45,233 nt of DNA from assembly GCA_030650415.1 (NCBI GenBank), contig JAUSEG010000012.1, positions 1 to 45,233 of the forward strand. Direction: 5' to 3'. Below are positions 15,334 through 44,985 of this stretch, one piece after another; position 1 is the stretch's first letter, and the number at the start of each line of letters is the position of its first letter. Both the position numbers and the translations under genes were made by a program. The DNA comes from a bacterium. GTDB lineage: Bacteria; Patescibacteriota; Patescibacteriia; Patescibacteriales; GWC2-42-12. The notes below the pieces were generated by a model. The model had not been told where the DNA came from and did no database searches. It saw only the letters and a program-made list of their open reading frames with translations.

Positions 15334-16755
15334 TTATTTAAATTCCGCCCGGCTTCTTAGCTTCCTGTGATAACCGATCGCGAAGCGGTGCGCTTCATCG
15401 CGCACTCGCTTAATCAGATGCAAGGCCGGCGAGGCTAAAGGCAATTCTAATGATTTTGACTCGCCGGGAAAAAATAGTTTGTCCGGCGCCGAGGCCGACC
15501 TTAGACCCAGCCCCTTGGAAATAGCGATCAATGGAATCGCCAGTTTTTGTTTTTTCAAAACGCTTGACGCCGCGTTTAGTTGAGGCTTGCCACCGTCCAC
15601 AATAATTAAGTCGGGTAGCGGCCAGCGCTGTTTGTCATCCTGGAGCGAAGCGATAGGATCTCTTCGTAATTTCCCTTCATGAGATGCTATCGCTCCCTGC
15701 GGTCGCTCCAGCATGACAGAATGAGTAAATCTCCTCTCAAGAACTTCCTTTAGCATACCTACGTCATTGGCTTGCCCTTGCCCAATTTTTATTTTAAATT
15801 TTCGATATTCATTTTTATTCGACTCGCCGCCGCTAAAAACTACCATGGAACCGACGGCTTCGCGCCCGAAAATATTGGCGATGTCATAGCCCTCTATCCG
15901 CTCCGGCGCTTTTGGCAAAGCTAGCAATTTGGCCAATTCCACTACGTCATTGGCGTATTTTTCTCCCACGCTTAGGACTCTGGCGTTCTCTAAAACCTGT
16001 TTCATATTTTTCAGTTCATATTTCAATCTGCCGAGCGCTTCATTATCGGCCTCGTCGCGATTATTCTTTTCCAGCTTCTTTATTTTAACTTCTCTGGCTA
16101 CGCCAGATCTGGCGAAGCCAGACAACTTCTTTATTCTAACTTCCATATTCTTAACTATCTTTCCCTTCTTCCCTTCTAAAAACATAATCAACGGTTTAAT
16201 CACCAACTTAATATACTCCTCTCTGGTAATCCGATCGGCGCAAATGCCTAAACATCTGCCAATTTGGTAATAAAAGCAAGGCCGGGTTTGCGTTTTTCTC
16301 ATATTGCAGTAGGGCCAAATTTTTCTGATGGCTCGAATAGTTTCGCGCGCCGCCAGAGAGCTTATAAACGGCCCGAAGTATTTACCCGATTTATCAATCT
16401 GCCTGGTTATGAAAACTCCGGGAATCTCATCTTCCGTGGAAATTTTAATATAGGCAAACCGCTTATCGTCCCGTAGAAGCACGTTATAATAGGGCTGATA
16501 TTTTTTTATTAAATTGGCTTCTAAGAGCAGAGCCTCGATTTCGCTGTCCACCGTAATCCACTTTATGGTTTTTATTTCCGCAAGCATCTTGTTTTTTGCC
16601 GGCGTGTGCCCGGCGCTCACGCGCCAATACGAAAGAACGCGGCTCTTTAAATTAGCCGCTTTGCCGATATAAATAATTTCTTTTTTACCGTTAAAAAACT
16701 GATAACAGCCGGGGGTTTCGGGTAGATTTAATTTTTTTACTTGTTCTAAGGTCAT
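15334..16755 (-). CDS. uvrC: Excinuclease ABC subunit C-like, with two in-frame repeat insertions and no C-terminal HhH
   Basis: LPETPGCY, IYIGKA.NL..RV, EALLLEANLIK, RIEGYDI, IVDGGKPQL, RDEAHRFAI. Confidence 0.92.
   Translation of the reverse strand: MTLEQVKKLNLPETPGCYQFFNGKKEIIYIGKAANLKSRVLSYWRVSAGHTPAKNKMLAEIKTIKWITVDSEIEALLLEANLIKKYQPYYNVLLRDDKRFAYIKISTEDEIPGVFITRQIDKSGKYFGPFISSLAARETIRAIRKIWPYCNMRKTQTRPCFYYQIGRCLGICADRITREEYIKLVIKPLIMFLEGKKGKIVKNMEVRIKKLSGFARSGVAREVKIKKLEKNNRDEADNEALGRLKYELKNMKQVLENARVLSVGEKYANDVVELAKLLALPKAPERIEGYDIANIFGREAVGSMVVFSGGESNKNEYRKFKIKIGQGQANDVGMLKEVLERRFTHSVMLERPQGAIASHEGKLRRDPIASLQDDKQRWPLPDLIIVDGGKPQLNAASSVLKKQKLAIPLIAISKGLGLRSASAPDKLFFPGESKSLELPLASPALHLIKRVRDEAHRFAIGYHRKLRSRAEFK
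15633..15718. repeat. TGTCAT..CTGGAG-type palindromic element in frame in uvrC
   Basis: TGTCATCCTGGAGCG...CGCTCCAGCATGACA; homologs at 34785 and 38078. Confidence 0.88.
16093..16122. repeat. 30-bp AGATCT-centred palindrome in frame in uvrC
   Basis: TCTGGCTACGCCAGATCTGGCGAAGCCAGA flanked by an 18-bp near-duplicate; related copy at 43456-43500. Confidence 0.85.
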
Positions 16756-16763
16756 ATTATGTT

Positions 16764-16891
16764 TGTCATTGCGGGCTTGACCCGCAATCCAGGGGTGAGC
16801 AATAAAGACATTAATACTACTAGCTTCTGGATTCCGGCTCGCCTTCGGCTTTAGGGCCGGAATGACAAAAAAACGGTCGCTCGCAATGACA
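16764..16891. repeat. Composite TGTCAT palindromic element
   Basis: Reverse complement aligns to 22907-23058, including the spacer. Confidence 0.88.
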
Positions 16892-16983
16892 ATAATAAAT
16901 AATCTACCACCTTTATATATAAAAAACAACCCACTTTAAAAATGAGTTGTTTTCATAATTCTTTATTCCTGATTCATTATTCA

Positions 16984-17160
16984 CTATTTGATTTCAATCG
17001 CCTGCACCGGGCAGCTTTCGGCCGCGTTTTTAGCGCAAGGTATATCTTCCTGGCTAAGCACGTCCACCTTATTATCGGCATTTAACTTAAAAACCTTGGG
17101 ACATAGAACTTCGCAGGTTCCGCAACCGATGCATAAATCATTGTTTACTTTAATAGACAT
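16984..17160 (-). CDS. Ferredoxin, 58 aa (absent from ORF track)
   Basis: MSIKVNNDLCIGCGTCEVLCPKVF...AAESCPVQAIEIK; CxxCxxC...CP motif. Confidence 0.92.
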   Translation of the reverse strand: MSIKVNNDLCIGCGTCEVLCPKVFKLNADNKVDVLSQEDIPCAKNAAESCPVQAIEIK

Positions 17161-17166
17161 AGAGTT

Positions 17167-20200: not shown

Positions 20201-21213
20201 TGATGCGCCGGCACCCACTCATTGGTTTTATTTTGATGTATTAAAATATAATCTTCCCTATTTAATCGATCGGTCTTAACGGAAAGTTTTTGATACAAGG
20301 GCATTAAAGAATCTCCGGATTTTAACTTCTCCGCTTCCAGATAGACGCCACTTCTTAACATGAACAAATGGTTAGGTGTACATTTTATTTCTTCTCCATT
20401 ATCCAATATAATCTTAGTGATTTCCGCCTGTTTTTTGGTCAATCTTGGTTTTTCAATCTTGGCGATAGAAATAAGCCCCAAGCTATTAACGGTATAAGTA
20501 TAATTTTGCTTGCCTCTTTTATATTCTTTTATAAGTTCGCCAAAGCTTAAACCTCTGCCATCGGTCAGTTTTACTTTAGTATCTTTAGTAAAACAGCCGA
20601 AGTTACCCTGCCCGCGCACTAACATGTAGCGCATGGAAAAATCTTGCGCCATTCTGACCATGGAATCATAAACCGCCGTATCGCCGTGCGGATGATACTT
20701 GCCTAAAACTTCTCCGACCACGGTGGCCGATTTCCTGAATCTGGCTCCGGCTCTAAGGCCGATGCTCCACATAGCGTAGAGAATTCTGCGGTGCACCGGC
20801 TTTAAACCGTCGCGCACGTCGGGCAAAGCGCGGGAAACGATCACGCTCATGGCGTAATCCAAATACGATTTTCGCATTTCATCGATCAAGGGTTGCGGTT
20901 CAACCATGCCATAAAGAGTTTTCTCTTTTTTAAAGACAGTCTGGTTAGGAATCGAGCCAATGCCGTTCTTCACTTCCCCATCAACGGCTTCTTCAATTGT
21001 TTCAACTTTCTTTTTAATCGGTACAACCGCTTTATTCTCCCCCTTTAACAAATGGGGCTGGGGGGATTTAATTTCGTTTTTCTCAATTTCCGCCGGCAAA
21101 ACTTCAATTGCCTTTTTTACAGCTTTAATCTTTTCCGGCTCTTTGCTCTCGGGTTTTTTTGGCTTTTTTGCTTTAATTTTCTTTAATATTTTTTTTACCA
21201 TTCTATTTGTCAT
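17296..21213 (-). CDS. gyrA: DNA gyrase subunit A with intein and Lys-rich N-terminal extension
   Basis: [30 protein letters not shown], GyrA-box QGRGGKG. Start could be 21201. Confidence 0.97.
19423..20595 (-). mobile_element. Intein, 391 aa, with HNH-type endonuclease
   Basis: GNFG|CFTKDT...IKCTPNHLF...VYDLT...FVHN|SMDGD; [14 protein letters not shown]...EH. Confidence 0.95.
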
Positions 21214-26667: not shown

Positions 26668-29301
26668 TTATCTTGAAAAATATTTTCCATCATCATCGTC
26701 ATCCGGATCTTTTACGGTAGAGACCTCTTCTTCATCCGGCAGACTAACCATCTTTATTCTCTCTGGTTTGAAATTTTTTTGTTCACTCGCAATCTTTTTT
26801 TCTACCGGTTCATCGATTTCCGATTCGTCTTTATTATCTTCGGCTTTCTCTTCTTCAATTTCCGACTCGCCTTCCTTATCTTCTGCTTCGTCCTCGACTT
26901 CGGTTTCTTTAATTTCTTCTGTTTCAGCATCAGTCTCTTCTTCCGCTTCAGGTTCATCCTCCAAAGCTTCAGCGTCGGAGGACAGATATTCATCCGGTGC
27001 CACCGCTTCGGCTTGCTTATGCAGAGGCGCGCCTGCCTGCGCAGGCAGGCCGCTAATCCCTTGATTAATTATACTATCATACTGCTCGCGACTAATCAAA
27101 ACTTCTCGGGGCTTAGAGCCATTACCCGCGCCAATCACGCCGGCCTCTTCTAAAAGATCTAGGAGCCGAGCCGCTCGCGCGTAGCCGATGCTTAAGCGCC
27201 TCTGCAAATATGAAGCCGAAGCTTTCCCTGAATTAATGATTAACTCTTTGGCTTCAGACATTAATTCATCGTCGTCTTCACTCCCGTTGCCGTCTAAACC
27301 TACGCCCCCCATGCCCTTAACCTTTTGCCTTTCCGTAATATTTTCAATATATCGCGGCTCGCCGCCCTGATCTTTAATGTAGTTCACAATCCGCCTAATT
27401 TCATTTTCGCTGACGAAGGCGCCCTGCAATCTCTTCGGCTTGGAAATTTCCGCCGTGGTAAAAAGCATATCGCCTCGGCCCAAGAGTTTTTCCGCGCCCA
27501 AAGAATCTAAAATCGTGCGTGAATCAATGCCTGAAGCTACGGAAAAAGCGATGCGCGCCGGCATGTTGGCTTTAATTAAGCCGGTGATAACGTCAACGCT
27601 CGGCCTCTGGGTAGCTAAAACCAAATGGATACCCACTGCTCTGGCCATCTGCGCCAAACGGATAACGCCGGCTTCAACTTCTCGCCCTGACGCTACCATT
27701 AAATCAGCCAATTCGTCTATAATAAAAACGATAAACGGCATTTTGCCCGTCCCGAGCTTGCCGAGGCGGTCTTCACCCATTTCATTATAACTGCCAATAT
27801 TTCTCTTGCCTGATTTAGCCAAGGCTTCAAACCGCCGATCCATCTCGTTCAAGCACCATTTTAAAGCATTAATGGTTTTATTGACATCGGTAATCACCGG
27901 CGTTAAAAGATGCGGTATGCCGTTATAGACCGGCAGTTCAACCCGTTTTGGATCAACCATAATAAAACGCAAATCGTCCGGACTATTTTGATATAATAAA
28001 CTTATAATAATCGCGTTTAAGCAGACTGATTTACCGGAGTTAGTCGAACCGGCGACTAAAAGATGGGGCATTTTTGATAAATCGTCCAGCCAAACTTTTC
28101 CGGAAACGTCCTTGCCTAGAGCAATCATAATATTACTTTTTCTGGTTTTAAACATCTCGCCGGCTAAGACTTCGCGAAGTCCGACTATCGCCTTGGTTTG
28201 GTTCGGCACTTCCACGCCGACTAAAGATCGTCCCGGAATGGGCGCTTCAATTCTAATCGGGTGCGCGGCCAAAGACAGAGCCAAATCGTTGCTTAAGGTC
28301 GTAATCTTGGTTAATTTTATACCTTCGGCCGGTTTTAAAGTATATTGGGTAACGGTCGGACCAACGTTAACTTCTCCCATCTCTACCGGAATATTAAAAT
28401 TTTCCAGCGTCCGCTGGATAATCATCATGTTATTTTTAATATCGCCGGAAGTGGGTTTGCCGATTTTAGGGTTTAGTAAATCCATGGGCAAATCGATTCT
28501 GACATGAGTCGGTTGCCAGCTGCCGTCTCTTACTTCGGCTTTTTTAGTTCCTTTAAGTTCATTTTCAGCTTCATCTCTGCCGGCCTTGATTCTATGTTTA
28601 TGAAATCCCACCTCGCTCAAATCGCCGGTTAGATCGGTTTCATCTTCCGCTTCCAATTCCTCGTCCTCGGCCAGCTGATCGTTAGCGGACGGCTCTTCGA
28701 CCGAAGCTTCTTCTCGGGGACCAAAAATTTTATTGAAAACAAAATTTATCGGATAGAGCATCTTAGCAAACCAACTCTCTTGGCCGATGATCGATTCCAA
28801 AGTAGCATTAAACATGAGCATCAAAGAAATAAAAACCAGACAGACAATAAAAACTAGGCTAGCCCAAAAACCCATGATTTTCGTAAAAATAGTAATTATG
28901 CCAAACCCAAGGTAGCCGCCGCCCGCGCCCTGATAAACGGCCGCCTGCCAGTTATCTTGACCGACAAAAGTATGGAGCAGAGCGCCGAAGGAAATGACAA
29001 AAATAAATAAACCCAAATAGTTCGCGCCCCTAACCCAATCCTTGCCTCGATTATACATTAAAAAACCGATAACAAATAAAAAAACCGGAAAAATCCATTT
29101 ATCCCAGCCGAAGACGAAAACTATGCCCTTATTTAAATAACCGCCTAAACCCTCGGCCAAATTAAACAAGCTTAAGAGGCTGATGGCGCCGAAAGCTAAA
29201 ATTAAAATAATAAAAATCCCCCGTTTCATGTCCGGGTCTAAATCAACTTTGGGCAATCTTACATAATCCAAAGGATTGGCTTTTCTTCGGCGTCTAACCA
29301 T
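26668..29301 (-). CDS. ftsK: DNA translocase FtsK/SpoIIIE with acidic tail
   Basis: 4TM N-terminus, MPHLLVAGST.SGKS, IIDELADLM, ATQRPSVDV, gamma domain LQRRL.IGYARAARL. Confidence 0.96.
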   Translation of the reverse strand: MVRRRRKANPLDYVRLPKVDLDPDMKRGIFIILILAFGAISLLSLFNLAEGLGGYLNKGIVFVFGWDKWIFPVFLFVIGFLMYNRGKDWVRGANYLGLFIFVISFGALLHTFVGQDNWQAAVYQGAGGGYLGFGIITIFTKIMGFWASLVFIVCLVFISLMLMFNATLESIIGQESWFAKMLYPINFVFNKIFGPREEASVEEPSANDQLAEDEELEAEDETDLTGDLSEVGFHKHRIKAGRDEAENELKGTKKAEVRDGSWQPTHVRIDLPMDLLNPKIGKPTSGDIKNNMMIIQRTLENFNIPVEMGEVNVGPTVTQYTLKPAEGIKLTKITTLSNDLALSLAAHPIRIEAPIPGRSLVGVEVPNQTKAIVGLREVLAGEMFKTRKSNIMIALGKDVSGKVWLDDLSKMPHLLVAGSTNSGKSVCLNAIIISLLYQNSPDDLRFIMVDPKRVELPVYNGIPHLLTPVITDVNKTINALKWCLNEMDRRFEALAKSGKRNIGSYNEMGEDRLGKLGTGKMPFIVFIIDELADLMVASGREVEAGVIRLAQMARAVGIHLVLATQRPSVDVITGLIKANMPARIAFSVASGIDSRTILDSLGAEKLLGRGDMLFTTAEISKPKRLQGAFVSENEIRRIVNYIKDQGGEPRYIENITERQKVKGMGGVGLDGNGSEDDDELMSEAKELIINSGKASASYLQRRLSIGYARAARLLDLLEEAGVIGAGNGSKPREVLISREQYDSIINQGISGLPAQAGAPLHKQAEAVAPDEYLSSDAEALEDEPEAEEETDAETEEIKETEVEDEAEDKEGESEIEEEKAEDNKDESEIDEPVEKKIASEQKNFKPERIKMVSLPDEEEVSTVKDPDDDDDGKYFSR
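27031..27050. repeat. GCCTGCCTGC-GCAGGCAGGC palindrome in frame in ftsK
   Basis: Perfect 20-bp palindrome encoding LPAQAG. Confidence 0.88.
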
Positions 29302-31120: not shown

Positions 31121-33991
31121 CTATTTATGCCTATACGCTCTAATAAATAACCCGACTAAAACAATTATCACACCCCCAGCGATTATCAGCAAATATTTAA
31201 ATAATTCGAGCTTCCTATCACGCTCCGCGACTGCCCACTCTTTCGCTTCAATCGTCTCGCCTAAAACTTGCGGCTCCAGATCGGTTGCGCCGGCGTCTTT
31301 TTTAACGATGTCCGACTGATAGCGCGGCAGCAGTCTTAAGCCGGTTGGCGTCTTGCTTAAAATACCGGTTATCGCTACCGCCTGGCCGGGTTTTAAATCT
31401 TTCGTATCCAGACCGGCGCCTTTTTTAAAATAAACCAAAATTTCATCGTTGCCGTCGTCTAAGTAAGCCGTATAGGCTTTTTTAGAAGTTATTTCGCCGG
31501 TAATGGTAATCAACTGGCCGATATTTTCTTCGCTAACCGCGTCAGAGCTTAAAACCAATGGCGTAGGCGCCGGCTTATGCTCTATTATATTAATGTCGTT
31601 TTTATCCTTGGTTTTTATTCTAAGCTCCTCCTGCGTTAGCGCCAGCTCGCCGCTCACCTCTATATAATCGCCAACTTTCAGAATAGGAAAATCTTTTTTA
31701 TAATTATAAATTTGTATGCCCGATGAAGAGGTGGCAATATAGAATATTTGGACGCCTAAGATCCCCGGCTCCACCGCTACCGTGCCATTAACTTTTACCA
31801 AGCTGCCAATCTCCAGATCTTTAACTTTTTCCAAGTTCATGGCAATATAACTATCCGCATTTCCCATTATTCCTAATTCATTATTCATAATTCCAGTCTG
31901 ACTGCCGGTCAAACTGATAACATTTTCCCGCGCCGGCGTTAGTTTAGTCGTCCAGAACCATCTGCCGTTGGCTCCGCGCGCGTAAGTCTCGCCCTGAAGC
32001 GCTCCGTTATATTCCACCCGGTCAATCAATTCGTCCAAATTATTATATAAGCTGATGGTATCGCTCTCATTTTTAAACGCCAGCCGGCTTTCCGCGTTGG
32101 TTAGCAGGTAAAAATTTTCCGTGTCCAGCCATAAATCATTTTTAAATTTAAACTTGCCGTTGCTGTTTTCCAATCGCCAATTTAGCAAATTAATTTTACT
32201 AAGCCCCTGATTTTTAAGTTCTGCCCATTCTTTGCCAGTATCCGCGCCGGCCGGATTGGGTAAAATTTCATTAATTACAATATTGTCATTGCGAGCGACC
32301 GCCTCTGTATTGTCATTCCCGCGTAGGCGGGAATCCAGAACTTCAACTACCTCGCCAACACTGCCAACAATTTTCACACTCTTTTCTTTAGTGCTAGTGG
32401 CCTGGCCGTCGCTTACCGCCAAGCTTACCTTATATATTCCGCTCTTAAAAAAGGTATGCTCCGGACTATCTAAATTATTTTTAAAGCCATCGCCAAAATC
32501 CCAAGCATATTTTAATTTATCACTATCTATATCATCAGTATCAGAGGAATCAAACCTAACCGGCTGACCGACTAAAGCTTCGCCAGGCGAGCTGAATTCA
32601 ACCTCTGGCGCGTGATTAACCGCTTTAATAACATTAGCCGCGCCCGGCGTCGGTGTCTCGCTCCAGATCCAATTACCCCCTTGATAAAGGGGGCTAGGGG
32701 GATTATTCATATCCAAATTATAGCTCCAACCTTCCTTTACATCCTTATATGAAACGATTTGCGTCGGCTTATCAGCTAGGGGTTCATACAATTTAATTTC
32801 GCCCTGATCATTATGCAGAACCAGCTTTGATTTGGGCCGAAAAAAAGCCAGAAATTCTCCGGCCTTGATGATCGTGCTGGTGGCAATTTTTTCTAAACTG
32901 ATTTTTTTATTATCTTCATTGCTTAGGCTCCAGCCGATTAAATTTATATCGCGCGCGCCGGCGTTATAAATTTCTATAAATTCCAATTTAGTGTCGTCGC
33001 CGGCCGGATTAGGCAGTATTTCGGAAATAAAAACATCATCGCTAAAATCAAACCCCGCTCTGGCCTCCGCGCTTGCTTCGTCTTCAATCTGAATAATATT
33101 ACTGGCGCCCTTAGTTGAGTTAACAGTAATGGAAAAATCGTTGGCATTATTAAAAGTATTATAGCCGTCAAATTTTCTGGCCACGCTAGCCGGGTCGCTG
33201 GCCGCCGGCGCGTTATCGGTCAAATTACCGTCATCCCAGTTGCCGTAAGCTACCTGGTCAATTATTTTTCCGCTGGCATCGTATAAAACAACTAAATCCC
33301 CGTCATTATTTAAAACGCCGGCCGGTTTTTCAATTACTTTGTATTTACCCGAACCGCTAGCGGCCAGACTGCCGCTTAAATTGGTCTTAGCTTTACTGCC
33401 GTCTTCAAGCCGCCAGCCGGTTAAATCTATTTCTCCGCTCGTTTTATTATATAGCTCAATCCACTCTACTTCGCCGTCTGCCGGATCGGAAACCAACTCG
33501 TTAATTACCACGTCACCCAGCGCGTCGGCCGCTCCGCGCGTCGGCGGCGGGGGAAGGATTATTTCTTCTTCGGTCGAAGTGGCTGTGTCGGCTTCTATCT
33601 GGCAGGCGGCGCTGCAGCCGTCGCCATTTGCCAAATTGCCGTCATCGCATTCTTCCTCGGAATCCAGCTGTCCGTCGCCGCAAACCGGCGCGATGATTTC
33701 ATTAACCACGGTTATTAAATCTTTAAGGCTGTCAAAAGTCGCCTGCTTAATCCCAACGACATTCATTATATCTTCAATTTTCTCAAACAATTTTATATTG
33801 CGATAATCAATAATCGCCTGCGCTTTAGCCTCCCCGATGCCGGGCAGAGTATCCAACTCGACCAGAGTGGCCGTGTTAATATTTATTTTACCCGAAGCTT
33901 CAATTTTTTGGCCACAAAAAAATCCCGCGCCAACTATGGCCAGGATTACAATAATTTGTACCAAATAAAAATCCCCTCCTTGTCGCCGCAT
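31121..33991 (-). CDS. Surface protein: ComEA-like HhH, Cys-rich repeat, three lamin-tail domains, PKD, OB folds, C-terminal TM
   Basis: ININTA..EL.TLPGIG..KA..II.YR; CGDG..EECDDGN..GDGCS; three INE/ISE..EWIE-type units; Y.WDFGDG. Confidence 0.88.
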   Translation of the reverse strand: MRRQGGDFYLVQIIVILAIVGAGFFCGQKIEASGKININTATLVELDTLPGIGEAKAQAIIDYRNIKLFEKIEDIMNVVGIKQATFDSLKDLITVVNEIIAPVCGDGQLDSEEECDDGNLANGDGCSAACQIEADTATSTEEEIILPPPPTRGAADALGDVVINELVSDPADGEVEWIELYNKTSGEIDLTGWRLEDGSKAKTNLSGSLAASGSGKYKVIEKPAGVLNNDGDLVVLYDASGKIIDQVAYGNWDDGNLTDNAPAASDPASVARKFDGYNTFNNANDFSITVNSTKGASNIIQIEDEASAEARAGFDFSDDVFISEILPNPAGDDTKLEFIEIYNAGARDINLIGWSLSNEDNKKISLEKIATSTIIKAGEFLAFFRPKSKLVLHNDQGEIKLYEPLADKPTQIVSYKDVKEGWSYNLDMNNPPSPLYQGGNWIWSETPTPGAANVIKAVNHAPEVEFSSPGEALVGQPVRFDSSDTDDIDSDKLKYAWDFGDGFKNNLDSPEHTFFKSGIYKVSLAVSDGQATSTKEKSVKIVGSVGEVVEVLDSRLRGNDNTEAVARNDNIVINEILPNPAGADTGKEWAELKNQGLSKINLLNWRLENSNGKFKFKNDLWLDTENFYLLTNAESRLAFKNESDTISLYNNLDELIDRVEYNGALQGETYARGANGRWFWTTKLTPARENVISLTGSQTGIMNNELGIMGNADSYIAMNLEKVKDLEIGSLVKVNGTVAVEPGILGVQIFYIATSSSGIQIYNYKKDFPILKVGDYIEVSGELALTQEELRIKTKDKNDINIIEHKPAPTPLVLSSDAVSEENIGQLITITGEITSKKAYTAYLDDGNDEILVYFKKGAGLDTKDLKPGQAVAITGILSKTPTGLRLLPRYQSDIVKKDAGATDLEPQVLGETIEAKEWAVAERDRKLELFKYLLIIAGGVIIVLVGLFIRAYRHK
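32284..32338. repeat. Composite TGTCAT element fragment in frame in the surface protein
   Basis: TGTCATTGCGAGCGACC-N10-TGTCATTCCCGCGTAGGCGGGAATCCAG, encoding LDSRLRGNDNTEAVARND. Confidence 0.88.
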
Positions 33992-37597: not shown

Positions 37598-37712
37598 ACC
37601 CCATGAAATAATTTTACTTTGAAGTAAAATTCCCGTTTACGGGATTTCACGGGGTTCACCCCATGAAATAATTTTACTTTGAAGTAAAATTCCCGTTTAC
37701 GGGATTTCACGG
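37598..37712. repeat. Tandem duplication (60-bp period) of a branched CCCCATGAAAT..ATTTCACGGGG element
   Basis: Two identical 55-bp copies at 37598-37652 and 37658-37712. Confidence 0.9.
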
Positions 37713-38224: not shown

Positions 38225-40627
38225 ATGCCAGAAAACAAATTCATTAAATTTTTCGAAGAAACCACTATTAAGGATGTGCCGTTAGTCGGAGGAAAAAACG
38301 CCTCTCTCGGCGAAATGTATAAAAACCTGGCCGGCCAGGGCATAAAAGTGCCGAACGGCTTCGCCACCACTTCGGCCGCCTATAACTACCTTCTGGAACA
38401 AACCGATTTAAAAGCCGGCATTAAAAAAATCTTGGACGGTTTAAACACGCGGAACGTTACCGATCTGGGCAAGCGCGGCGCGGCCGTTAGAAAATTAATT
38501 ATCGCTACCGAATTCCCCGATGATCTGAAGCAAGCCATTTTAGAAAGCTACAAAAAATTATCCGAATTTTATAAAACTAAAAATCTGCATGTCGCGGTTA
38601 GATCGAGCGCCACGGCCGAAGATCTACCCGACGCATCGTTTGCTGGCCAGCAGGAAACCTTTTTAAATGTTTCGGGCGAAGCCGAACTGCTCTTAATGGT
38701 AAAAAAATGCCTCGCTTCCTTATTTACTAACCGCGCCATCTCCTACCGCGTAGACAAAGGCTTTGATCATTTTCAAATCGCTTTGTCCGTGGGCGTGCAG
38801 AAAATGATCCGTTCCGATTTAGCCGCCTCGGGCGTAACCTTTACCATTGACACCGAGTCGGGCTTTAGCAACGTAGTCCTCGTCAGTTCTATTTACGGCT
38901 TGGGCGAAAATATCGTCCAGGGTAAAGTTGATCCGGACGAATTCTATGTTTTTAAACCCACTAAAACCATCATTTCTCGCTCTTTAAGCAAAAAAAATAT
39001 TAAAATGATTTACAGTTCTAATCCCAAGCGTCCGGTTAAGGATGTAAAAGTGCCATTAAGCGATCAACGCAAGCAATCTATCACCGACGCGCAAGTTCTG
39101 AAACTGGCCGATTGGGCCATGCAGATTGAAAAGCATTATGGCCGAGCCATGGATATAGAATGGGCTTTGGACGGCCGAGATAACGAACTATATATTATCC
39201 AGGCCAGACCGGAAACTATCCATAGCGTTCGTGATTACAGCGTGATTGAAGAATATGTTTTAGAAAAAAAATCTTTACCCCATAAAGGAACTTCACGGGG
39301 CAAAATTATTTCTACCGGCCGAAGCGTGGGCAATCGCATCGGCGCCGGAACCGCCAATCGAATTATGGACATATCCAGTATCGCGAAATTCAAACCAGGC
39401 GAAGTTCTGGTTACCGATATGACCGATCCGGACTGGGAGCCGATTATGAAAATCGCCTCGGCTATCGTGACCGACAAGGGCGGACGCACCTGCCACGCGG
39501 CCATCGTTTCCAGGGAGCTGGGCATTCCTTGCGTCGTCGGTACGGGTGATGTTTCTAGAAAAGTTAAAACCGGCCAAGCCGTAACCGTTAGTTGCGCCGA
39601 GGGCGACATGGGCTTCGTTTACGAGGGCAAGCTGCCGTTTAAAATCAATCAGACCAGCATTAAAAATCTGGCCAAACCGAAGACTAAGATCATGATGAAT
39701 ATCGGTTCGCCGGATATTGCCTTCTTATCGTCCTTTATTCCTAATGATGGCGTGGGGCTGGCGCGCGAAGAATTTATTATTAATGATCAGATAAAAATTC
39801 ATCCTCTGGCGCTCATAAATTATCCGAAGTCAAAGGACAAAAAAGCCAAAAAGAAAATTGACGAGTTAACCGCCGGCTATAAGGACAAAAAACAGTATTA
39901 TATTGATAAGCTGGCGCAAGGCATGGCCATAATTTCCGCCGCCTTTTATCCTAAGGATGTAATTATCAGATTTTCCGATTTTAAAACCAACGAATACGCG
40001 AACCTAATCGGCGGCGCCGAGTATGAGCCGGTTGAATCCAACCCGATGATCGGCTGGCGCGGCGCTTCGCGCTATTACACGCCGGAATTTAAGCCGGCCT
40101 TTGAACTGGAGTGCTTGGCTATAAAAAAAGTCCGGAATGAGATGAAGCTGACCAATCTAAAAGCCATGGTGCCGTTCTGCCGTACCATTAAAGAAGCCGA
40201 GCAGGTGATAAAAATTATTGCCGACAACGGCTTAAAGCAAGGTGAAAACGGCTTTGAATTATATTGCATGGTGGAAATACCGTCCAACGTCATTCTGGCC
40301 GAAGAATTCGCTAAACTCTACGATGGCTTTTCCATCGGCTCTAACGACCTAACCCAACTAACGCTCGGCGTTGACCGCGACAGCTCGCTGGTCAGCAAAG
40401 TCTATGATGAAAACAATTTGGCGATAAAGAAATTAATTAAGCTCGCCATTAAAGTCGCCAAACAAACCGGCACGAAGATCGGCATCTGCGGCCAAGCCCC
40501 GTCCGATTTCCCCGAATTCGCCCAATTCCTGGTGGAATGCGGCATAGACAGCATTTCCCTAAACCCGGACACGGTTATAAAAACCACTCTAGCCATACTG
40601 GAAACGGAAAAGAAGCTGGGCAAATAA
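38225..40627 (+). CDS. ppsA: Phosphoenolpyruvate synthase
   Basis: VGGKNASLGEM, AVRSSATAEDLPDASFAGQQET, GGRTCHAAIVSRELG, SIGSNDLTQL. Confidence 0.97.
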   Translation: MPENKFIKFFEETTIKDVPLVGGKNASLGEMYKNLAGQGIKVPNGFATTSAAYNYLLEQTDLKAGIKKILDGLNTRNVTDLGKRGAAVRKLIIATEFPDDLKQAILESYKKLSEFYKTKNLHVAVRSSATAEDLPDASFAGQQETFLNVSGEAELLLMVKKCLASLFTNRAISYRVDKGFDHFQIALSVGVQKMIRSDLAASGVTFTIDTESGFSNVVLVSSIYGLGENIVQGKVDPDEFYVFKPTKTIISRSLSKKNIKMIYSSNPKRPVKDVKVPLSDQRKQSITDAQVLKLADWAMQIEKHYGRAMDIEWALDGRDNELYIIQARPETIHSVRDYSVIEEYVLEKKSLPHKGTSRGKIISTGRSVGNRIGAGTANRIMDISSIAKFKPGEVLVTDMTDPDWEPIMKIASAIVTDKGGRTCHAAIVSRELGIPCVVGTGDVSRKVKTGQAVTVSCAEGDMGFVYEGKLPFKINQTSIKNLAKPKTKIMMNIGSPDIAFLSSFIPNDGVGLAREEFIINDQIKIHPLALINYPKSKDKKAKKKIDELTAGYKDKKQYYIDKLAQGMAIISAAFYPKDVIIRFSDFKTNEYANLIGGAEYEPVESNPMIGWRGASRYYTPEFKPAFELECLAIKKVRNEMKLTNLKAMVPFCRTIKEAEQVIKIIADNGLKQGENGFELYCMVEIPSNVILAEEFAKLYDGFSIGSNDLTQLTLGVDRDSSLVSKVYDENNLAIKKLIKLAIKVAKQTGTKIGICGQAPSDFPEFAQFLVECGIDSISLNPDTVIKTTLAILETEKKLGK

Positions 40628-40634
40628 AGAAAAT

Positions 40635-41492
40635 ATGTTTCTGTTTAATTTTCTCCATACCTTTAACCCCTCTCCAATCTTAATTTCTCTCGGACCAATT
40701 CATGTCTATTGGTATGGTTTTTTTATTGTCTTAGGAGTATTAGCCGCCTTGACCGTGACCATACGCTTGGCCAAATTTTATCAAATCAAAACTGACACCA
40801 TCATTGACTTGGCTCTCTGGCTGGTTGTCGGCGGCATCATGGGCGCTAGAATTTACGACATTTTCTTGGAATGGCCGTACTTCTCCGCCCACCCTCTGGA
40901 TATCTTAAAAATCTGGCAAGGCGGTTTAGCGATTCATGGCGCGATTATCGGGGGATTGATCGCGCTCTGGCTGTTCGTCAAAAAATACTCCGCCCAGGTA
41001 AATTTCTGGCAGCTGGCGGCCATCTTCGCTACCGTCTTGCCCTTGGCCCAGGCCATTGGCCGCTGGGGAAATTATTTTAATCAGGAACTCTTCGGCTATC
41101 CGACTAATCTGCCCTGGGGCATACCCATAGATATGACTCACCGACCTTGGCAGTATCTTAATTCCGAATATTTCCACCCGGCGTTTTTATATGAGTCACT
41201 TGGCAATTTACTAATATTTTTAATTTTACTATCACTGCAAATTTGGCTTATAAAGAAATCAAGGAGTCTTGGGTTGCGAGCTATGAGCTACGAGCTATGC
41301 GTTGTGAGTTACGCGATTTTTTATTCTTTGCTCCGCTTTTCCATGGAATTTATTAGAATTGACCCTACCCCGGTTATCTTGGGCTGGCGCCTGCCACAGC
41401 TAGCCAGTTTCATAATTATCATCGCCTGCCTAATTTATTTAGGGCTAAAATTCGGCCGCCAGAACAAGAATAACCCAGCTCTTGAAAAATAA
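40635..41492 (+). CDS. lgt: Prolipoprotein diacylglyceryl transferase
   Basis: WYG, GAR.Y, GGLAIHG, IGRWGNYFNQE, HP.FLYE, RF..EF.R. Confidence 0.95.
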   Translation: MFLFNFLHTFNPSPILISLGPIHVYWYGFFIVLGVLAALTVTIRLAKFYQIKTDTIIDLALWLVVGGIMGARIYDIFLEWPYFSAHPLDILKIWQGGLAIHGAIIGGLIALWLFVKKYSAQVNFWQLAAIFATVLPLAQAIGRWGNYFNQELFGYPTNLPWGIPIDMTHRPWQYLNSEYFHPAFLYESLGNLLIFLILLSLQIWLIKKSRSLGLRAMSYELCVVSYAIFYSLLRFSMEFIRIDPTPVILGWRLPQLASFIIIIACLIYLGLKFGRQNKNNPALEK

Positions 41493-41600
41493 ACAACGCC
41501 GTGCTAATATAATTGAGACTTAGACAAATCACATCATATTAAAAATTATTTATCCCGTTTCAACGGGACAAAATTTAAAAATTAAAAATTTTATTTATCT

Positions 41601-41870
41601 ATGCCTAATTCAAAGTCAGCGGAAAAAAATCTGTGTAAATCAATCAAACATCGCCAAGCCAATGCCAAAATTGAAAATAATCTAAAAGATTTAATCAAAA
41701 AGGGCCGTAAATTAATTGAAGCTAAGGACGGTCAAGCTAAAGATTTGGTGGCTAAAATTTTAGTGGCGATCGATAAAGCGGCGCAAAAAGGCGTCATCAA
41801 AAAAAATACGCGCGACCGCAAGAAATCAAGACTGCAAAAAAAATTCAACCAAGCTTTTAAAAAAGCTTAA
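41601..41870 (+). CDS. rpsT: 30S ribosomal protein S20
   Basis: MPN.KSA.K, IDKAAQKGVIKKN..RKKSRL. Confidence 0.93.
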   Translation: MPNSKSAEKNLCKSIKHRQANAKIENNLKDLIKKGRKLIEAKDGQAKDLVAKILVAIDKAAQKGVIKKNTRDRKKSRLQKKFNQAFKKA

Positions 41871-41951
41871 TAACAAAAAACTGTAATCATATTTAGTATA
41901 ATATTAAATATATTACAATTTCTTGTAAGCCGCTCTTTAAATAAACGTTTA

Positions 41952-41981
41952 ATACAAAAACCCCTAAACAGGGGTTTTTGT
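41952..41981. terminator. Bidirectional terminator
   Basis: ACAAAAACCCCT-aaac-AGGGGTTTTTGT. Confidence 0.75.
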
Positions 41982-41992
41982 GTATTGTCTAC

Positions 41993-42148
41993 TGTCATTG
42001 CGAGAAATATAATTTACATTTGTCATTCCCGCGCAGGCGGGAATCCAGAAACGGGGTTTTTACTGTTCACTCCTGGATTCCCGCCTGCGCGGGAATGACA
42101 GAGGAGAAAATTTGCTTCCCCCGGCTCAAGGCCGGAGTCGCAATGACA
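41993..42148. repeat. Nested TGTCAT element (outer GCGAG type, inner CCCGC type)
   Basis: Inner perfect 28-bp inverted pair at 42021-42048 and 42073-42100. Confidence 0.92.
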
Positions 42149-42158
42149 ATTAACCAAT

Positions 42159-43214
42159 TTACATCCTCGCTATCAGCATATTAAGCCCAGTTAGATAATC
42201 ACGCTGACCGGATTTAGCCAAGTAATCAATTTCCGTTAGTTGGCTAAAAATCTTTTTTAAAACCGGCAAGCTGAAATTCCTCGCCTGTTCCAGGCCCTTT
42301 TGCAGAACAAAGGGGTGCAACTTTATTTGCGTGGAGATTTGGCGAGAACTTAAGCCCGCGTCAAGCGCCTGTCTTAACTGAAGTAGAATTCTGAACTGCC
42401 TGACAAACATATTTAATAAATAAGGACCCTCTAAACCGGCCTCAATCTGCTCATCCAATAATTTAATGGCCAATGGCTTATTTTTAGCGCTAAGCGCGTC
42501 GGTTAAGGCGAAAACATTATCGCTAAAATTGCCGCGCGTTAAATTTTTTACATCCAAAGTTTCAATTTCTAAAATAGATTCAGTTAATCTTCCGGCCTGC
42601 TTAAAACTCAACAATTTATCTATTTCACTGCTGATTTGCCAGCCTGCCTGTCCGGCAGGCAGGCCGTCCGAACCGACCAAGCCAACTAAAGTCGCCGCCG
42701 CCTCGGCGCTAATTTTACCGCCGCGATTAGCGACTTCCTTTTTTACCCAGCTGGCCAGTTCGACATGGCTTAATAAATTAAAATTATAGGTATATTTCTG
42801 CTTAACTAAAAATTTAAACAACTCAGACGATTTTTTGTTTAGCGGCTTGTCCTGGCCGGAAGGATCAATTAAAAATGGCAACAAAAGATTTTTAATCTTT
42901 TTAATCTTAAGATTTGACTCCCAAAAAATAATAATGTTGTCGCTCTGTTCTTTCTCCTTTAAATAATCGTGAAGTTTCTCGAACATTGCCTGATCTTTGC
43001 CGGCAAAAATATCCTCAATAATAATCAGGCGCTTTTTAGAAAGCAGCGAAGAAGCGCCGATGGCGGACGTTATATCGGAAAAATTCGCCTTGGCGCCGGC
43101 GATTGTCTTAAGGCCGCTCCCCAGTTTATCTACTTCTCGGAGATACTTATCCCTTAATTCATTTAATTTTAAACGGCTTCTGAAATTGTCTTCACCGTAA
43201 AGAAAAACGATCAT
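42159..43214 (-). CDS. holA: DNA polymerase III delta subunit
   Basis: IFLYGED.F, EIDKL, VFALTDAL, QFR.LL, LHPFV..K, ID...KSG. Confidence 0.9.
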   Translation of the reverse strand: MIVFLYGEDNFRSRLKLNELRDKYLREVDKLGSGLKTIAGAKANFSDITSAIGASSLLSKKRLIIIEDIFAGKDQAMFEKLHDYLKEKEQSDNIIIFWESNLKIKKIKNLLLPFLIDPSGQDKPLNKKSSELFKFLVKQKYTYNFNLLSHVELASWVKKEVANRGGKISAEAAATLVGLVGSDGLPAGQAGWQISSEIDKLLSFKQAGRLTESILEIETLDVKNLTRGNFSDNVFALTDALSAKNKPLAIKLLDEQIEAGLEGPYLLNMFVRQFRILLQLRQALDAGLSSRQISTQIKLHPFVLQKGLEQARNFSLPVLKKIFSQLTEIDYLAKSGQRDYLTGLNMLIARM

Positions 43215-43282
43215 ACATGCTTGTTAAATTATTTAAATTTTGCTAATCTGATAGTATAACTATTTAAGCTCAAGTTTCAATT

Positions 43283-43456
43283 ATGCAAACCCACCAATGC
43301 CCGGTCTGCTCAAGCGACATTATCATTGAAGAAGGTTCTGCCGAAAAAGACTTAGTCAGTTGCTTGAACTGCTCGACCGAGCTGGAAATTGTCACTCTGC
43401 ATCCGCTGCTCCTCGAACCTCTGGCAGATTCAGCCGAAGAAAAAATCGATGAATAA
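43283..43456 (+). CDS. LysW-like zinc-ribbon protein, 57 aa (absent from ORF track)
   Basis: MQTHQCPVCSSDIIIEEGSAEKDLVSCLNCSTELEIVTLHPLLLEPLADSAEEKIDE. Confidence 0.72.
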   Translation: MQTHQCPVCSSDIIIEEGSAEKDLVSCLNCSTELEIVTLHPLLLEPLADSAEEKIDE

Positions 43457-43539
43457 AATTCGTCAGGCTACGGCCAGATCTCGCGTAGCGAGACAAATTT
43501 CAACGCTATAAATCCAATAAAGCCGCGATGGCTTTGTTT

Positions 43540-44985
43540 TTATTTTAAATTAAAAACTTCTTGTTTAAACAAATCGCCTCTTTCTTTGTAATTTTTAAAC
43601 ATACCGAAACTGGCGCAAGCCGTGGATAATAAAACCACCTCGCCAGGCCGTGTTTCAACTCCAGCGGCTTTAACCGCCGCCTTAATGCTATTTACTAATT
43701 TCGTTTTATCTTCTTTAATCCCAACTTTTAACAACTCGGCTTTTATTCTCGGCGTAGCATCGCCGTTTAATAAAATCGCAAGCTTCACGCGTTTTTTAAC
43801 CTCTCCGGCCAACCCTTTAAAATTCGCGCCCTTATCGGCTCCGCCTAAGAGTAAAATTATCGGAGCGGAAAAAGACTTTAAAGCGATGATGGTTGCTTCG
43901 GGTGTAGTCGCAAAACTATCATCATAATATTTTACTCCATTAATCTCGCGCGCCAATTCCAAACGATGGGGCAACCCCTTAAAATTCGCCACCGCTTTTT
44001 TTATATCTGCTTTTTTTATACCGACGATTTTTGCCGCCTCGACGGCCGCCGCAATATTTTCTTTATTATGCTCGCCAAGAAGAGAGGTGTGAATTATTGA
44101 ACCTGCCTGCCGGCAGGCAGGTAATGAATTATGGTTATTAAGCTTACATTTTATTTTTTGTTCGTCAAGCCAAAAACAATTAGCTTTCTGACTTCTTGCG
44201 CTAAAAGTAAATATTTTGCCTTTTAATTCATGATTCATAATTCCTAATTCATAATTCAAAACCGCCTTATCTTCCGGTTTTTGATATTTAACAATATTCA
44301 TCTTAGCCGCCCAATATTTTTCTAACGTTCTATGATAATTCGGATTGTTCGGATCGGCCGGCGCTAAATGCTCCGGATATAGGTTGGTAATTACGGCGAT
44401 TCGAGGGCTAACCGTCATATCTTCAAGCTGAAAAGAGGAGAGCTCTAAAACTACCCAATCATTTTTTTTAATTTTATCAATAAACTCAAACGGCGCTACG
44501 CCGATATTACCGCCCAGCCAGGCTTTTTTACCGGCAGTTTTTAATATTTCATAGATTAAGCTGGCGGTTGTGCCCTTGCCCTTGGTTCCGGTCACGCCGA
44601 TGATATTCTTGCTTGGGCAGAGATCAAAAAATAGCTTCATCGGGCTGGATAATGTTCTGCCCCCTTTAATAAAGACCCGTCTCGTCTTCGGCTTGCCGAG
44701 GTGGAGGGGCAGGGGGGATTTAATTTTCAGCGCTCGTTGCACCCCCGGGCAATCTATCGGCCAGCCCGGGGCGCGAAACAAAATATCAAATTTATCTAAA
44801 TTTTTATTGTAACCACTGCCTAGTTGCCAAAAAACCGGCAATTCATTCTTTGTGCCCGCGCGCGCGTCGCAAACCGTTATCTCACATTTCACTTTATGCT
44901 TTAACAAATATTTAATCAGGGCCGAGTTTTCCAAGCCCAAGCCCAAAATTCCAATTTTTTTGTTATTTAGAGAATTTATGGTCAT
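43540..44985 (-). CDS. murD: UDP-MurNAc-L-Ala:D-Glu ligase with three in-frame repeat insertions
   Basis: GVTGTKGKGTT, GGNIG, LELSSFQL, F.GLPHRLE, DDS.ATT, GGADKG, ASFGMF.NY.ERG. Confidence 0.95.
   Translation of the reverse strand: MTINSLNNKKIGILGLGLENSALIKYLLKHKVKCEITVCDARAGTKNELPVFWQLGSGYNKNLDKFDILFRAPGWPIDCPGVQRALKIKSPLPLHLGKPKTRRVFIKGGRTLSSPMKLFFDLCPSKNIIGVTGTKGKGTTASLIYEILKTAGKKAWLGGNIGVAPFEFIDKIKKNDWVVLELSSFQLEDMTVSPRIAVITNLYPEHLAPADPNNPNYHRTLEKYWAAKMNIVKYQKPEDKAVLNYELGIMNHELKGKIFTFSARSQKANCFWLDEQKIKCKLNNHNSLPACRQAGSIIHTSLLGEHNKENIAAAVEAAKIVGIKKADIKKAVANFKGLPHRLELAREINGVKYYDDSFATTPEATIIALKSFSAPIILLLGGADKGANFKGLAGEVKKRVKLAILLNGDATPRIKAELLKVGIKEDKTKLVNSIKAAVKAAGVETRPGEVVLLSTACASFGMFKNYKERGDLFKQEVFNLK

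Follow-up and report, generated by a model that had tools for sequence, protein, structure and literature searches.

Palindromic repeats that sit in frame within protein-coding genes have so far been a curiosity chiefly of Rickettsia, Wolbachia and a few free-living bacteria. Among the Rickettsia palindromic elements (RPEs), RPE-1 to RPE-3, which go back to Ogata et al. 2000 and 2002, are said to measure 100-150 bp and to add 30-50 residues to a protein. The in-frame MITEs (miniature transposable elements with inverted repeats) of Coxiella burnetii are reportedly another instance of short palindromic repeats tolerated within genes, and the STRR sequences of cyanobacteria consist of tandem 7-nt units that form arrays between and within genes, with small repeats nested in each other. 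We describe here the situation in a bacterium of the Patescibacteria, or candidate phyla radiation (CPR). The stretch of DNA that was analysed, hereafter 'the window', is the contig JAUSEG010000012.1 of assembly GCA_030650415.1 and measures 45,233 nt; eight of its genes (uvrC, gyrA, ftsK, ppsA, lgt, holA, murD and a gene for a ComEA-like protein) hold fourteen stretches that had been described as repeat-derived. The reading that we consider likely is an RPE-like colonisation of this Falkowbacteria-like CPR genome by several very short repeat families, of which frame-preserving copies have survived at permissive sites. It is a kind of selfish DNA that was already known and that is new for the Patescibacteria phylum.

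The closest described system is the superfamily of CGTC-tagged repetitive extragenic palindromes (REPs). These elements have been described as having a CGTC (often TGTC) tag, a stem of 8-9 bp of which the first two pairs are A-T, a loop of 4-5 nt and a CCA tail, and as occurring mostly in head-to-head dimers (PMC3733652). Di Nocera et al. (2013) placed the Neisseria dRS3 repeats and RPE-4 and RPE-6 of R. conorii in this superfamily and reported intragenic copies, notably in repair and replication genes; within the scope of that survey a dedicated transposase was not known, and expression of in-gene inserts in Rickettsia is reported there as well (PMC3733652). Chenal et al. (2025) redefined the Neisseria repeat as the 28-nt NTS, generalised it as the SRM motif, and described SsnA, a 94-aa single-domain GIY-YIG protein that cuts NTS as single-stranded DNA and whose gene is often bracketed by the repeats (PMC11893778). 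In Neisseria, NTS and SsnA were reported to reduce the integration of transforming DNA (PMC11893778). For R. felis 728 RPEs have been listed, of which 85 lie within open reading frames (ORFs; PMC1166351).

Inserts and tracts in eight genes

The window is an entire contig (C26) of a 45-contig metagenome-assembled genome of 1,286,694 bp, with 40.8% G+C and a completeness of 98.7%. The genomes of relatives measure 0.6-1.4 Mb, and the runs that contain window DNA are groundwater metagenomes only, with no RNA run among those for 38225-45000. A preliminary description, made from the letters alone, had listed the fourteen stretches; its coordinates and gene names proved right, all eight host ORFs are intact, and the host frame reads through each of the fourteen. 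The protein that had been called a surface protein ('surf' in the site names below) has 956 aa and combines ComEA-HhH, lamin-tail, PKD and OB-fold domains. The gyrA gene contains an intein (residues 205-598, window 19420-20601, minus strand), of which both the N- and the C-terminal splicing regions were matched. Given that the gyrA start at 21213 and the Lys-rich N-terminal tail are conserved among relatives, the repeat site in this gene is truly coding. The true start of uvrC is the ATG at 16755, in agreement with orthologs that begin with MTLE or MNLE; the ORF is 58 codons too long because its frame runs through a repeat cluster directly upstream of the start, recovered as k-mer intervals:

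16762..16894, no strand assigned: repeat cluster directly upstream of the uvrC start, by which the ORF is falsely lengthened by 58 codons

Several families were distinguished. Family T comprises stem-loops that carry a TGTC tag and whose stem comes in several variants (sites uvrC_1 and surf_2), family G the palindrome ACCTGCCTGCCGGCAGGCAGGT (ftsK_1, holA, murD_1), family P the element AATCCCCC..GCCCC...AAAGGGGG (gyrA, surf_3, murD_3), family L CTCGRCAAGCTCGGGAC-like and CTCGGCAAGCTCGGGAC-like elements (ftsK_2, and nested within murD_3) and family S tandem TCTGGC..GCCAGA pairs (uvrC_2). There are in addition two heptamer families, a GAATTAT-type (surf_1, murD_2) and a GAGCTAY-type (lgt).

The proteins were aligned with those of as many as 30 relatives, drawn from the same genus, family and order and numbered with G below, and the DNA with that of the closest ones. 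In this way, the fourteen insertions that had been claimed were reduced to eleven. Eight are clean 3n insertions that are absent from the orthologs, three are older inserts common to some relatives (gyrA, surf_2, surf_3), and surf_1, murD_2 and lgt are no net insertions. Peptides of the same length in orthologs that lack the DNA repeats, named beforehand as evidence against insertion, were found, at equal or nearly equal length, at these last three sites and at none of the other eleven. The eight clean inserts are listed here by window position, with the number of genomic matches (blastn-short at E<=1e-3, self included) at the end of each line:

15625..15717, minus strand: uvrC_1, head-to-head dimer of TGTC hairpins, TGTCATGCTGGAGCG...CGCTCCAGGATGACA, of 86 nt + 7 nt; in-frame insert of 93 nt, 31 aa; 25 matches
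16072..16122, minus strand: uvrC_2, S family, two 15-nt hairpins in tandem (30 nt) with a 21-nt flank that is duplicated (three heptamer units); insert of 51 nt, 17 aa; 30 matches
27031..27050, minus strand: ftsK_1, G family, 20-nt perfect palindrome GCCTGCCTGC/GCAGGCAGGC; net insert of 18 nt, 6 aa, in the C-terminal tail of FtsK; 2 matches
27746..27769, minus strand: ftsK_2, L family (CTCGGCAAGCTCGGGAC-like); insert of 24 nt, 8 aa, in the FtsK motor, just upstream of its Walker B strand; 1 match
39271..39297, plus strand: ppsA, no repeat family; clean insert of 27 nt, 9 aa, in 0/24 orthologs; 1 match
42642..42664, minus strand: holA, G-family hairpin with a non-canonical loop; net insert of 21 nt, 7 aa; 13 matches
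44101..44122, minus strand: murD_1, canonical 22-nt G palindrome ACCTGCCTGCCGGCAGGCAGGT within a native MurD segment, with gaps in orthologs; 38 matches
44668..44727, minus strand: murD_3, P-family element whose loop contains a nested L-family element; insert of 60 nt, 20 aa; 1 match

The gap at uvrC_1 measures 93 nt against G002, G003, G010 and G017, with boundaries that depend on the alignment to ~3 nt. The position is empty in 11 of the 24 orthologs and occupied by different inserts, of several families, in the other 13; the RNA of the host copy folds at -43.1 kcal/mol (z -5.5), which none of 200 shuffles equalled. The uvrC_2 insert (fold z -5.8) was found in none of the 24 orthologs, which retain ..KNYELRIKN.. 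at this place, and its flank is a decayed heptamer tract. Nine S dimers were recovered genome-wide, and abutting direct repeats of at least 9 nt (9-18 nt) accompany four of them, as against 1.3% of 300 random controls. Three of these four lie in heptamer-like surroundings, and the apparent flank duplications may be mere units of heptamer tracts.

Both ftsK inserts are absent from all 23 orthologs. The first follows directly on GGC and itself terminates in GGC; the match to E. coli FtsK stops short of it, at residue 736, and an acidic tail comes after it. At the position of the second, G002 has eight unrelated residues, and the length of this loop varies among distant orthologs; its RNA fold was not significant. 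The ppsA insert falls where the N-terminal nucleotide-binding domain borders on the swivel domain (NCBIfam matches end at 331-350 and start at 354-374). Like ftsK_1, the holA insert follows GGC and terminates in GGC; it is absent from all 13 orthologs that cover the site and its fold (z -4.65) was equalled by 0/200 shuffles. The murD_1 palindrome (fold z -3.8) corresponds to a gap of 9 aa in the MurD of S. agalactiae (3LK7) and of 6 aa in G027. Around it lies a native MurD block of ~37 aa (window 44095-44200, residues ~262-297), which is missing in 17 of 18 full-length relatives, including all those of the same genus, and which is retained in 3LK7 and G027. The murD_3 insert is absent from 18/18 orthologs, three of which (G016, G001, G023) carry different inserts at its position. 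A phmmer search against the PDB placed murD_3 on native residues of 3LK7, with a low posterior probability; this was judged a misalignment (KSPLPL ~ KNPGIP), the 18 orthologs being decisive.

The three older inserts are:

21039..21068, minus strand: gyrA, P-family element AATCCCCC..GCCCC...AAAGGGGG; located in GyrA's N-terminal tail, which is Lys-rich and variable; 8 matches
32284..32338, minus strand: surf_2, in a linker between domains of the ComEA-like protein, a TGTC hairpin of NTS-like form and a TGTCATTGCGAGCGACC half-element; 102 matches
32676..32704, minus strand: surf_3, P-family element (NPPSPLYQGG) in the ComEA-like protein; 17 matches

The gyrA element (fold z -1.3, not significant) is also present in G004 of the same genus, and most other relatives show a gap of ~10 aa. 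At surf_2, both elements occur at the same place in G018; the linker is ~5 aa shorter in the other orthologs, in part with copies that look decayed (..VARND, ..ISRND, ..VISEDG). The surf_3 element is common to G004 and G001, while G009 and G011 have variants of it, and it makes the protein ~6-8 aa longer than in relatives without it.

The lengths of the in-gene copies agree with the reading frame. The canonical G palindrome measures 22 nt in 18 of the 19 copies compiled, which is not a multiple of three, and two of the three in-gene G copies are of non-canonical length, with altered loops and net insertions of 18 nt (ftsK_1) and 21 nt (holA). Secondary inserts nested within in-gene elements are 3n as well (36 nt in gyrA of G004; L within P at murD_3). 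Within the main ortholog match, no stops were reported for MurD, PpsA and the GyrA head, except for the GyrA head of G026 (2 TAA). Stops were reported in two FtsK ortholog matches (G017 and G026, positions unplaced) and flagged in five UvrC ortholog matches, which start upstream of the true start and in which the stops were not individually located. No frame-breaking repeat copy was seen among the orthologs examined. All relatives examined have repeat-derived peptides of their own elsewhere in their MurD, UvrC, GyrA and ComEA-like orthologs (e.g. IPAFAGMT, LPDRQA, PLAARND, PAFAEASAGKQ and many xPLxPPLxKGG variants), and the behaviour therefore appears, on sequence grounds, to be at least order-wide.

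As expected in the preliminary description, the clean inserts are located in loops, linkers or tails. In an AlphaFold model of MurD (19-row alignment, mean pLDDT 79.7), values below 50 were obtained for residues 90-108, which are murD_3, for 265-297, which contain murD_1, and for 209-214, which hold no repeat; the murD_2 segment is structured (pLDDT ~85). In the model of UvrC (18 rows, mean pLDDT 78.1) just two segments stay below 50, namely 216-231, i.e. uvrC_2, which lies at the turn between two long helices, and 348-375, i.e. uvrC_1 (numbered in trimmed residues). The clean inserts thus fall on four of the five low-confidence segments over the two models, a result that is partly forced, as the other alignment rows are gapped there. 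Two positions are recurrent, namely uvrC_1 (13/24 UvrC orthologs) and murD_3 (3/18 MurD orthologs), and are hot spots.

Repeat families, TGTC hairpins and small GIY-YIG nucleases

Copies were also counted in a scan that tolerates mismatches, with the reversed pattern as control. This yielded 13 copies of ftsK_2 (<=4 mismatches) against 0, 32 copies of the P core, which is common to gyrA and, slightly altered, to surf_3 and murD_3, against 1, and 16 copies of the lgt heptamer tract against 0. With the two methods together, 13 of the 14 sites have further copies in the genome, well above the reversed-pattern controls, so that a repeat origin, earlier assumed for every site, holds for all except ppsA, of which no second copy was found. 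The presence of intergenic copies within the window was confirmed. Over the whole genome, 1097 GC-containing 12-mers occurred at least 10 times, versus 40 in an order-3 Markov simulation, and 486 versus 0 occurred at least 15 times; the most frequent 12-mers were TGTCATTGCGAG (155 copies) and TTGTCATTCCCG (132 copies). None of the repeats was matched in a scan with Rfam, the sole match in the window being one tRNA.

Smaller GC hairpins (GCCTGCCTGC.., CCGCCAGCTGGCGG, CCCCC..GGGGG, TCTGGC..GCCAGA and CTCGGCAAGCTCGGGAC-like) are found either solitary or nested in T loops. More generally, G, C, K and L hairpins occur within the loops of T hairpins, an L element within the P loop of murD_3, and in G004 an additional 36-nt element within the P element of gyrA. 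The families are nested in one another's loops and therefore not mutually independent; 'several' in the earlier wording 'several unrelated families' was justified, 'unrelated' was not. Nesting of small repeats is one of two points of likeness to the cyanobacterial STRR sequences, the other being the dispersed arrays of tandem heptanucleotides. The units found here (GAATTAT/GAATTAA and GAGCTAY) and the phylum are different, and the tracts lie over native coding sequence of unchanged length.

The most abundant elements carry TGTC tags, with 297 TGTCAT[TG]C heads genome-wide. The consensus of the NTS-like T subfamily, TGTC-ATTCCCGC-GCAG-GCGGGAAT-CCAG, has the tag, stem, loop and tail of the CGTC-tagged REPs; many copies of other T subfamilies have far longer loops with nested hairpins. 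The published NTS consensus was found in 59 copies when its first base could be C or T (the heads here read TGTC), an exact NTS-type pattern in 82 copies as compared with 0 for its reversed control, and the SRM motif in 104, as compared with 1, 1, 2, 2 and 2 in five Markov-1 simulations. By these features of sequence, the main family is assigned to the CGTC/TGTC-tagged REP superfamily. The likeness to REP, NTS and SRM elements covers the tag, the 8-bp stem opening with A-T, the 4-nt loop, the CCA(G) tail and, for the pairs seen in the window, the head-to-head order, and extends to copies within repair and replication ORFs and to small GIY-YIG genes bracketed by hairpins. Different are the long loops that bear hairpins, the four nuclease paralogs each with its own subfamily (see below), and the Patescibacterial host, as the 2013 survey describes five other phyla (PMC3733652). 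The resemblance to RPEs that had been noted is thereby made stronger, considering that RPE-4 and RPE-6 are members of the superfamily; this link rests on the published classification (PMC3733652) and not on a direct comparison of sequences.

Elements of the core T family are found either alone or as head-to-head dimers. An intergenic example of the head-to-head arrangement, which is shared by uvrC_1 and by a second pair at 45015-45088, is the following:

41991..42102, no strand assigned: two NTS-like hairpins (TGTCATTCCCGCGCAGGCGGGAATCCAG) placed head to head in the lgt-holA interval, with arms 42021-42048 and 42073-42100 that are 100% complementary

In four groundwater runs the summed contig word depth at 41841-42292, around this pair, was 400 to 11,400, versus ~5-70 in neighbouring bins, and at the pair itself it rose to ~750 to 11,400; presumably, the hairpin is extremely common in those groundwater communities, across many organisms.

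The genome contains 13 stand-alone ORFs for GIY-YIG proteins, recognised by the Pfam GIY-YIG family. Four of them, of 94-99 aa and mutually similar (E 1e-28 to 1e-33), are Ssn-like. Three of the four are flanked on both sides by inverted TGTCAT hairpins and one on one side, and a distinct hairpin subfamily goes with each gene: TTGCGGCC (14 copies), NTS-like (115), TTGCGAG (155) and T[TG]CTGGAG (34+25). Such flanks were found at 0/6 other GIY-YIG ORFs from the same search. A second type of small GIY-YIG ORF (78-88 aa) lies directly upstream of same-strand tRNA genes (tRNA-Pro-GGG, tRNA-Leu-TAA, tRNA-Leu-CAA and tRNA-Cys-GCA), at C2:3748-3954, C28:4238-4459, C38:11434-11634 and C45:28598-28831, where C denotes contigs; the C28 copy has an in-frame TGA. 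On C38 the 5' half of the tRNA-Leu gene is duplicated upstream of the GIY-YIG ORF, and this copy bears a GCCTGCC hairpin at the position of the anticodon loop.

The association is not limited to this genome. Among 300 other Patescibacteria genomes the exact NTS-type pattern was present in 55 (56/301 including the host), with 0 for the reversed control throughout, and the host, with its 82 copies, was the richest of the 301 sampled. An Ssn-like gene was found in 45 of the 55 genomes with the pattern as compared with 62 of the 245 without, where it should be considered that related genomes are not independent. In several other Patescibacteria hairpins abut or bracket the Ssn-like gene (e.g. G251, contigs C17 and C38, and G116). 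The word Patescibacteria does not occur in the main text of the Ssn paper (PMC11893778). Targeted and citation literature searches, outside of which were subscription-only papers and bioRxiv supplements, recovered no published description of in-frame repeats in genes of Patescibacteria or CPR; the papers in which the Ogata titles have been cited since 2014 deal with Rickettsia, Coxiella, Wolbachia and mitochondria or with unrelated topics.

A hairpin superfamily with members near-identical to the Neisseria NTS has thus spread through part of the CPR and is found within essential genes of an otherwise streamlined genome of 1.29 Mb. The four nuclease paralogs and four hairpin subfamilies constitute a compact natural experiment, which makes the question of what mobilises the CGTC repeats, as left open in the survey (PMC3733652), accessible to testing. 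Of the lines opened here, the four pairs of nuclease and hairpin and the heptamer overlay that leaves length unchanged hold the most promise.

Density, depletion from genes and a proposed course of events

In a strict census, 530 repeat intervals of at least 18 nt were obtained, of which 56 (11%) were located within ORFs, belonging to 37 genes; to be counted as internal, an interval had to lie inside an ORF with at least 100 non-repeat codons upstream and at least 30 downstream. The pattern-defined families affected 45 genes, to which the heptamer tracts add 12. The in-gene counts are lower bounds; the k-mer method recovers about half of the fourteen sites. Given that the 1168 ORFs of the census cover 86% of the genome, the share of 11% amounts to an 8-fold in-gene shortfall and therefore points to strong purging from genes. 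A looser k-mer census (334 internal intervals, 218 genes) was rejected, as its 12-nt intervals include chance matches and segments of paralogs. Perfect hairpins in ORF interiors (742 genes of at least 200 aa) numbered 22, as against 5-15 for five codon shuffles. Since the stems of most families are 8 bp long or imperfect, this excess is weak, and it was not used as a measure of density.

The genome-wide density is comparable to that of the richest Rickettsia, with a similar within-ORF share (56/530 here, 85/728 in R. felis; PMC1166351). The impression of a 'much denser' version that the window had given was not borne out. This contig has 1.55 internal intervals per 10 kb, around 3.5 times the genome mean of 0.44. 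Like RPEs in the strict sense, the repeats colonise intact, often housekeeping genes in frame and do so in a small genome. Most inserts are shorter (18-60 nt) than RPE-1 to RPE-3. The intragenic GTAG REPs of Opitutus terrae and others are alike in being short palindromes tolerated in frame, and these have been tied to RAYT transposases (PMC3733652).

Based on the above, the RPE-like colonisation that we consider likely could have proceeded as follows. Copies would land throughout the genome, and selection would eliminate nearly all of those that hit genes, as the 8-fold depletion suggests. The in-gene survivors would be those with a length of 3n, free of stops in the host frame and positioned permissively, in loops, in linkers between domains or in disordered tails, which are the properties seen in the clean inserts. 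They would be translated within the host protein, judging from the frame, and contribute 6-31 extra residues. Because permissive spots would be few, the same positions would be struck independently in different relatives. The likely handlers of the TGTC hairpins would be the Ssn-like single-domain GIY-YIG nucleases, acting on single-stranded DNA: their association with the hairpins is observed, their activity and their part in spreading are suggested by it. The copies would then spread via a route through single-stranded DNA.

Several points weigh against this reading. The depletion depends on crude longest-ORF gene calls, and the k-mer census also includes false positives from paralogs, such as the AbiEii-like ORF (8418-8453). 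The ppsA insert is a single genomic copy even at <=5 mismatches and belongs to no family. As to the label 'hairpin', used earlier for all sites, RNA folding was better than all of 200 shuffles only at 4/14 sites (uvrC_1, uvrC_2, holA and murD_1), so that the term does not suit every site. The low pLDDT values at the inserts are in part a product of the alignments, and that the inserts are translated into protein is something that we infer rather than observe. A fixed-length target duplication was not found at the elements analysed. MITEs have terminal inverted repeats, a target duplication of constant length and a related IS element. The uvrC_1 element has inverted ends; the G hairpins share only GGC on each side, and the repeats flanking S dimers vary from 9 to 18 nt. 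Movement was not observed either: the contigs from the groundwater runs, which cannot show rare variants, contained no insertion polymorphism, and none of them bridged an insert by skipping 18-93 nt. A 284-nt contig of a relative, of which the alignment ends at 39274, before the ppsA insert, was set aside as uninformative, since the joint skips 111 nt of which the content is not known. Finally, the Ssn-like proteins, putative members of the CDD family cd10448 of the Ssn system, had in NCBIfam a weak match (E 0.0074) to a group I intron endonuclease model.

A bolder version, which we offer tentatively and regard as rather doubtful, assigns to each Ssn-like nuclease the nicking and spreading of its own TGTC hairpin subfamily through single-stranded DNA. 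The two would then be autonomous and non-autonomous members of mobile pairs, the nucleases would be the long-missing mobiliser of the CGTC REPs, RPE-4 and RPE-6, and short peptides would be written into essential proteins at the few permissive loops; in a separate process, gene conversion or concerted slippage would overwrite coding sequence with heptamer tracts, leaving the length unchanged.

It seems improbable to us that the in-gene hairpins have been retained for a role at the DNA or RNA level, be it as Ssn targets that modulate recombination, as RNA structures that pace translation or as adaptive variation of surface loops. Such a role would be in line with the reported lowering of transforming-DNA integration by NTS and SsnA in Neisseria (PMC11893778) and with the four Ssn-like genes and the ComEA-like protein of this genome. 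Half of the genes hit (4/8: uvrC, gyrA, ftsK, holA) act on DNA, a parallel to the reported over-representation of repair and replication genes among REP-decorated genes (PMC3733652), and the copies of the host genome at old sites are still near their family consensus. The same protein positions are moreover hit repeatedly across relatives, but these hot spots are equally expected if permissive sites are few. Against a retained function are also the 8-fold depletion of in-gene copies, the restriction of most inserts to a single genome, with none in same-genus relatives, and the different families from which the inserts within one gene come.

In practical terms, the repeats lengthen ORFs at their 5' ends and break assemblies, and the lineage-specific loops may mislead alignments and structure predictions.

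Heptamer tracts, remaining alternatives and minor features

The three sites without net insertion are, with blastn-short matches as before:

31865..31894, minus strand: surf_1, heptamer-periodic tract (GAATTAT-type) in the ComEA-like protein; not a net insertion; 34 matches
41271..41312, plus strand: lgt, heptamer tract (GAGCTAY units) over a native membrane segment of Lgt; 1 match
44224..44257, minus strand: murD_2, five GAATTAT-type heptamer units; not a net insertion; 64 matches

In all three cases the counterpart in the orthologs differs little or not at all in length. For surf_1 the length of the segment is the same within 1-3 aa in 19/19 orthologs, and the heptamer form is present in G009 and G011 and not in G002 and G004 of the same genus. 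The murD_2 tract aligns to native residues of 3LK7 and has a counterpart of similar length in 18/18 full-length relatives; the periodicity was recovered at the same position and length in four of the five relatives with DNA aligned across the tract (G002, G004, G007 and G010), which belong to several genera. The lgt tract is just 9 nt longer than in G004 and G001 of the same genus, where the unit is a different one (CCTACTT or CTTACTT), and it aligned to native sequence of E. coli Lgt in 5AZB. Genome-wide, 32 heptamer tracts of at least four units were counted, 13 of them inside ORFs, and the window itself ends in such an array:

45099..45233, no strand assigned: perfect (ATTCTTA)n array of at least 19 units, in which the contig ends; other-strand form of the intragenic GAATTAA/GAATTAT unit family

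To judge from the alignments, the heptamer tracts behave as old, orthologously placed tracts over native coding sequence that would turn over in place, a phenomenon separate from the inserts. Slippage with concerted change is one possible route of this turnover, and conversion from other arrays is another.

The heptamer sites also speak for the view that none of the stretches is an insertion and that they are native variable linkers or low-complexity segments which merely resemble repeats. Counterparts that equal surf_1, murD_2 and lgt in length, or nearly so, are present in every ortholog examined and in solved homologs, and the surf_2 linker is similar in length across 19/19 orthologs. As a general explanation we nevertheless hold this view to be very unlikely: it is refuted at the eight clean sites by gaps in 13-24 orthologs each, with base-exact boundaries in the DNA, the inserted DNA matches dispersed intergenic copies, and codon structure cannot produce a periodicity of 7 nt.

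Still less credible is the removal or skipping of the inserts after transcription, by RNA processing or translational bypass, which would give proteins without them. The four very stable hairpins (-16 to -43 kcal/mol, equalled by 0/200 shuffles) are its sole support. All inserts, including the nested secondary ones, are 3n and stop-free in the host frame, in-gene G copies deviate from the canonical 22 nt in such a way that the frame is restored, no Rfam family matched the inserts, and inserts of 18-27 nt are far below the size of self-splicing elements. That the inserts are artefacts of metagenome assembly or binning is most unlikely, even in a 45-contig metagenome-assembled genome of which the contigs break at repeats, as they do at 42047/42077 and in the terminal heptamer array, as every insert is flanked on both sides by contiguous, in-frame orthologous coding sequence, the independent genomes of relatives carry the same kind of insert at other positions, and contigs of the likely source run, which are not independent evidence, match 38672-42047 and 42077-45000 with 0 differences.

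Some other features were observed beside the inserts. In most relatives the open frame of GyrA measures 840-960 aa, and in G011 it measures 1319 aa. A perfect tandem duplication with a 55-nt unit and a 60-nt spacing (37598-37712, 37417-37498) holds a CCCCATGAAAT...ATTTCACGG element and lies ~100 nt from a tRNA gene. Neither Pfam nor NCBIfam gave a match for an ORF of 1009 aa (window 23311-26340, minus strand), inside which two segments are tandemly duplicated, one of 57 nt (25568-25681, 98% identity) and one of 42 nt (25360-25443, 93% identity). Finally, a direct repeat of 104 nt (6759-6862 and 10026-10129, 88% identical) encloses ~3.2 kb with the AbiEii-like toxin ORF (7995-8756), and the two copies may be the ends of an island.

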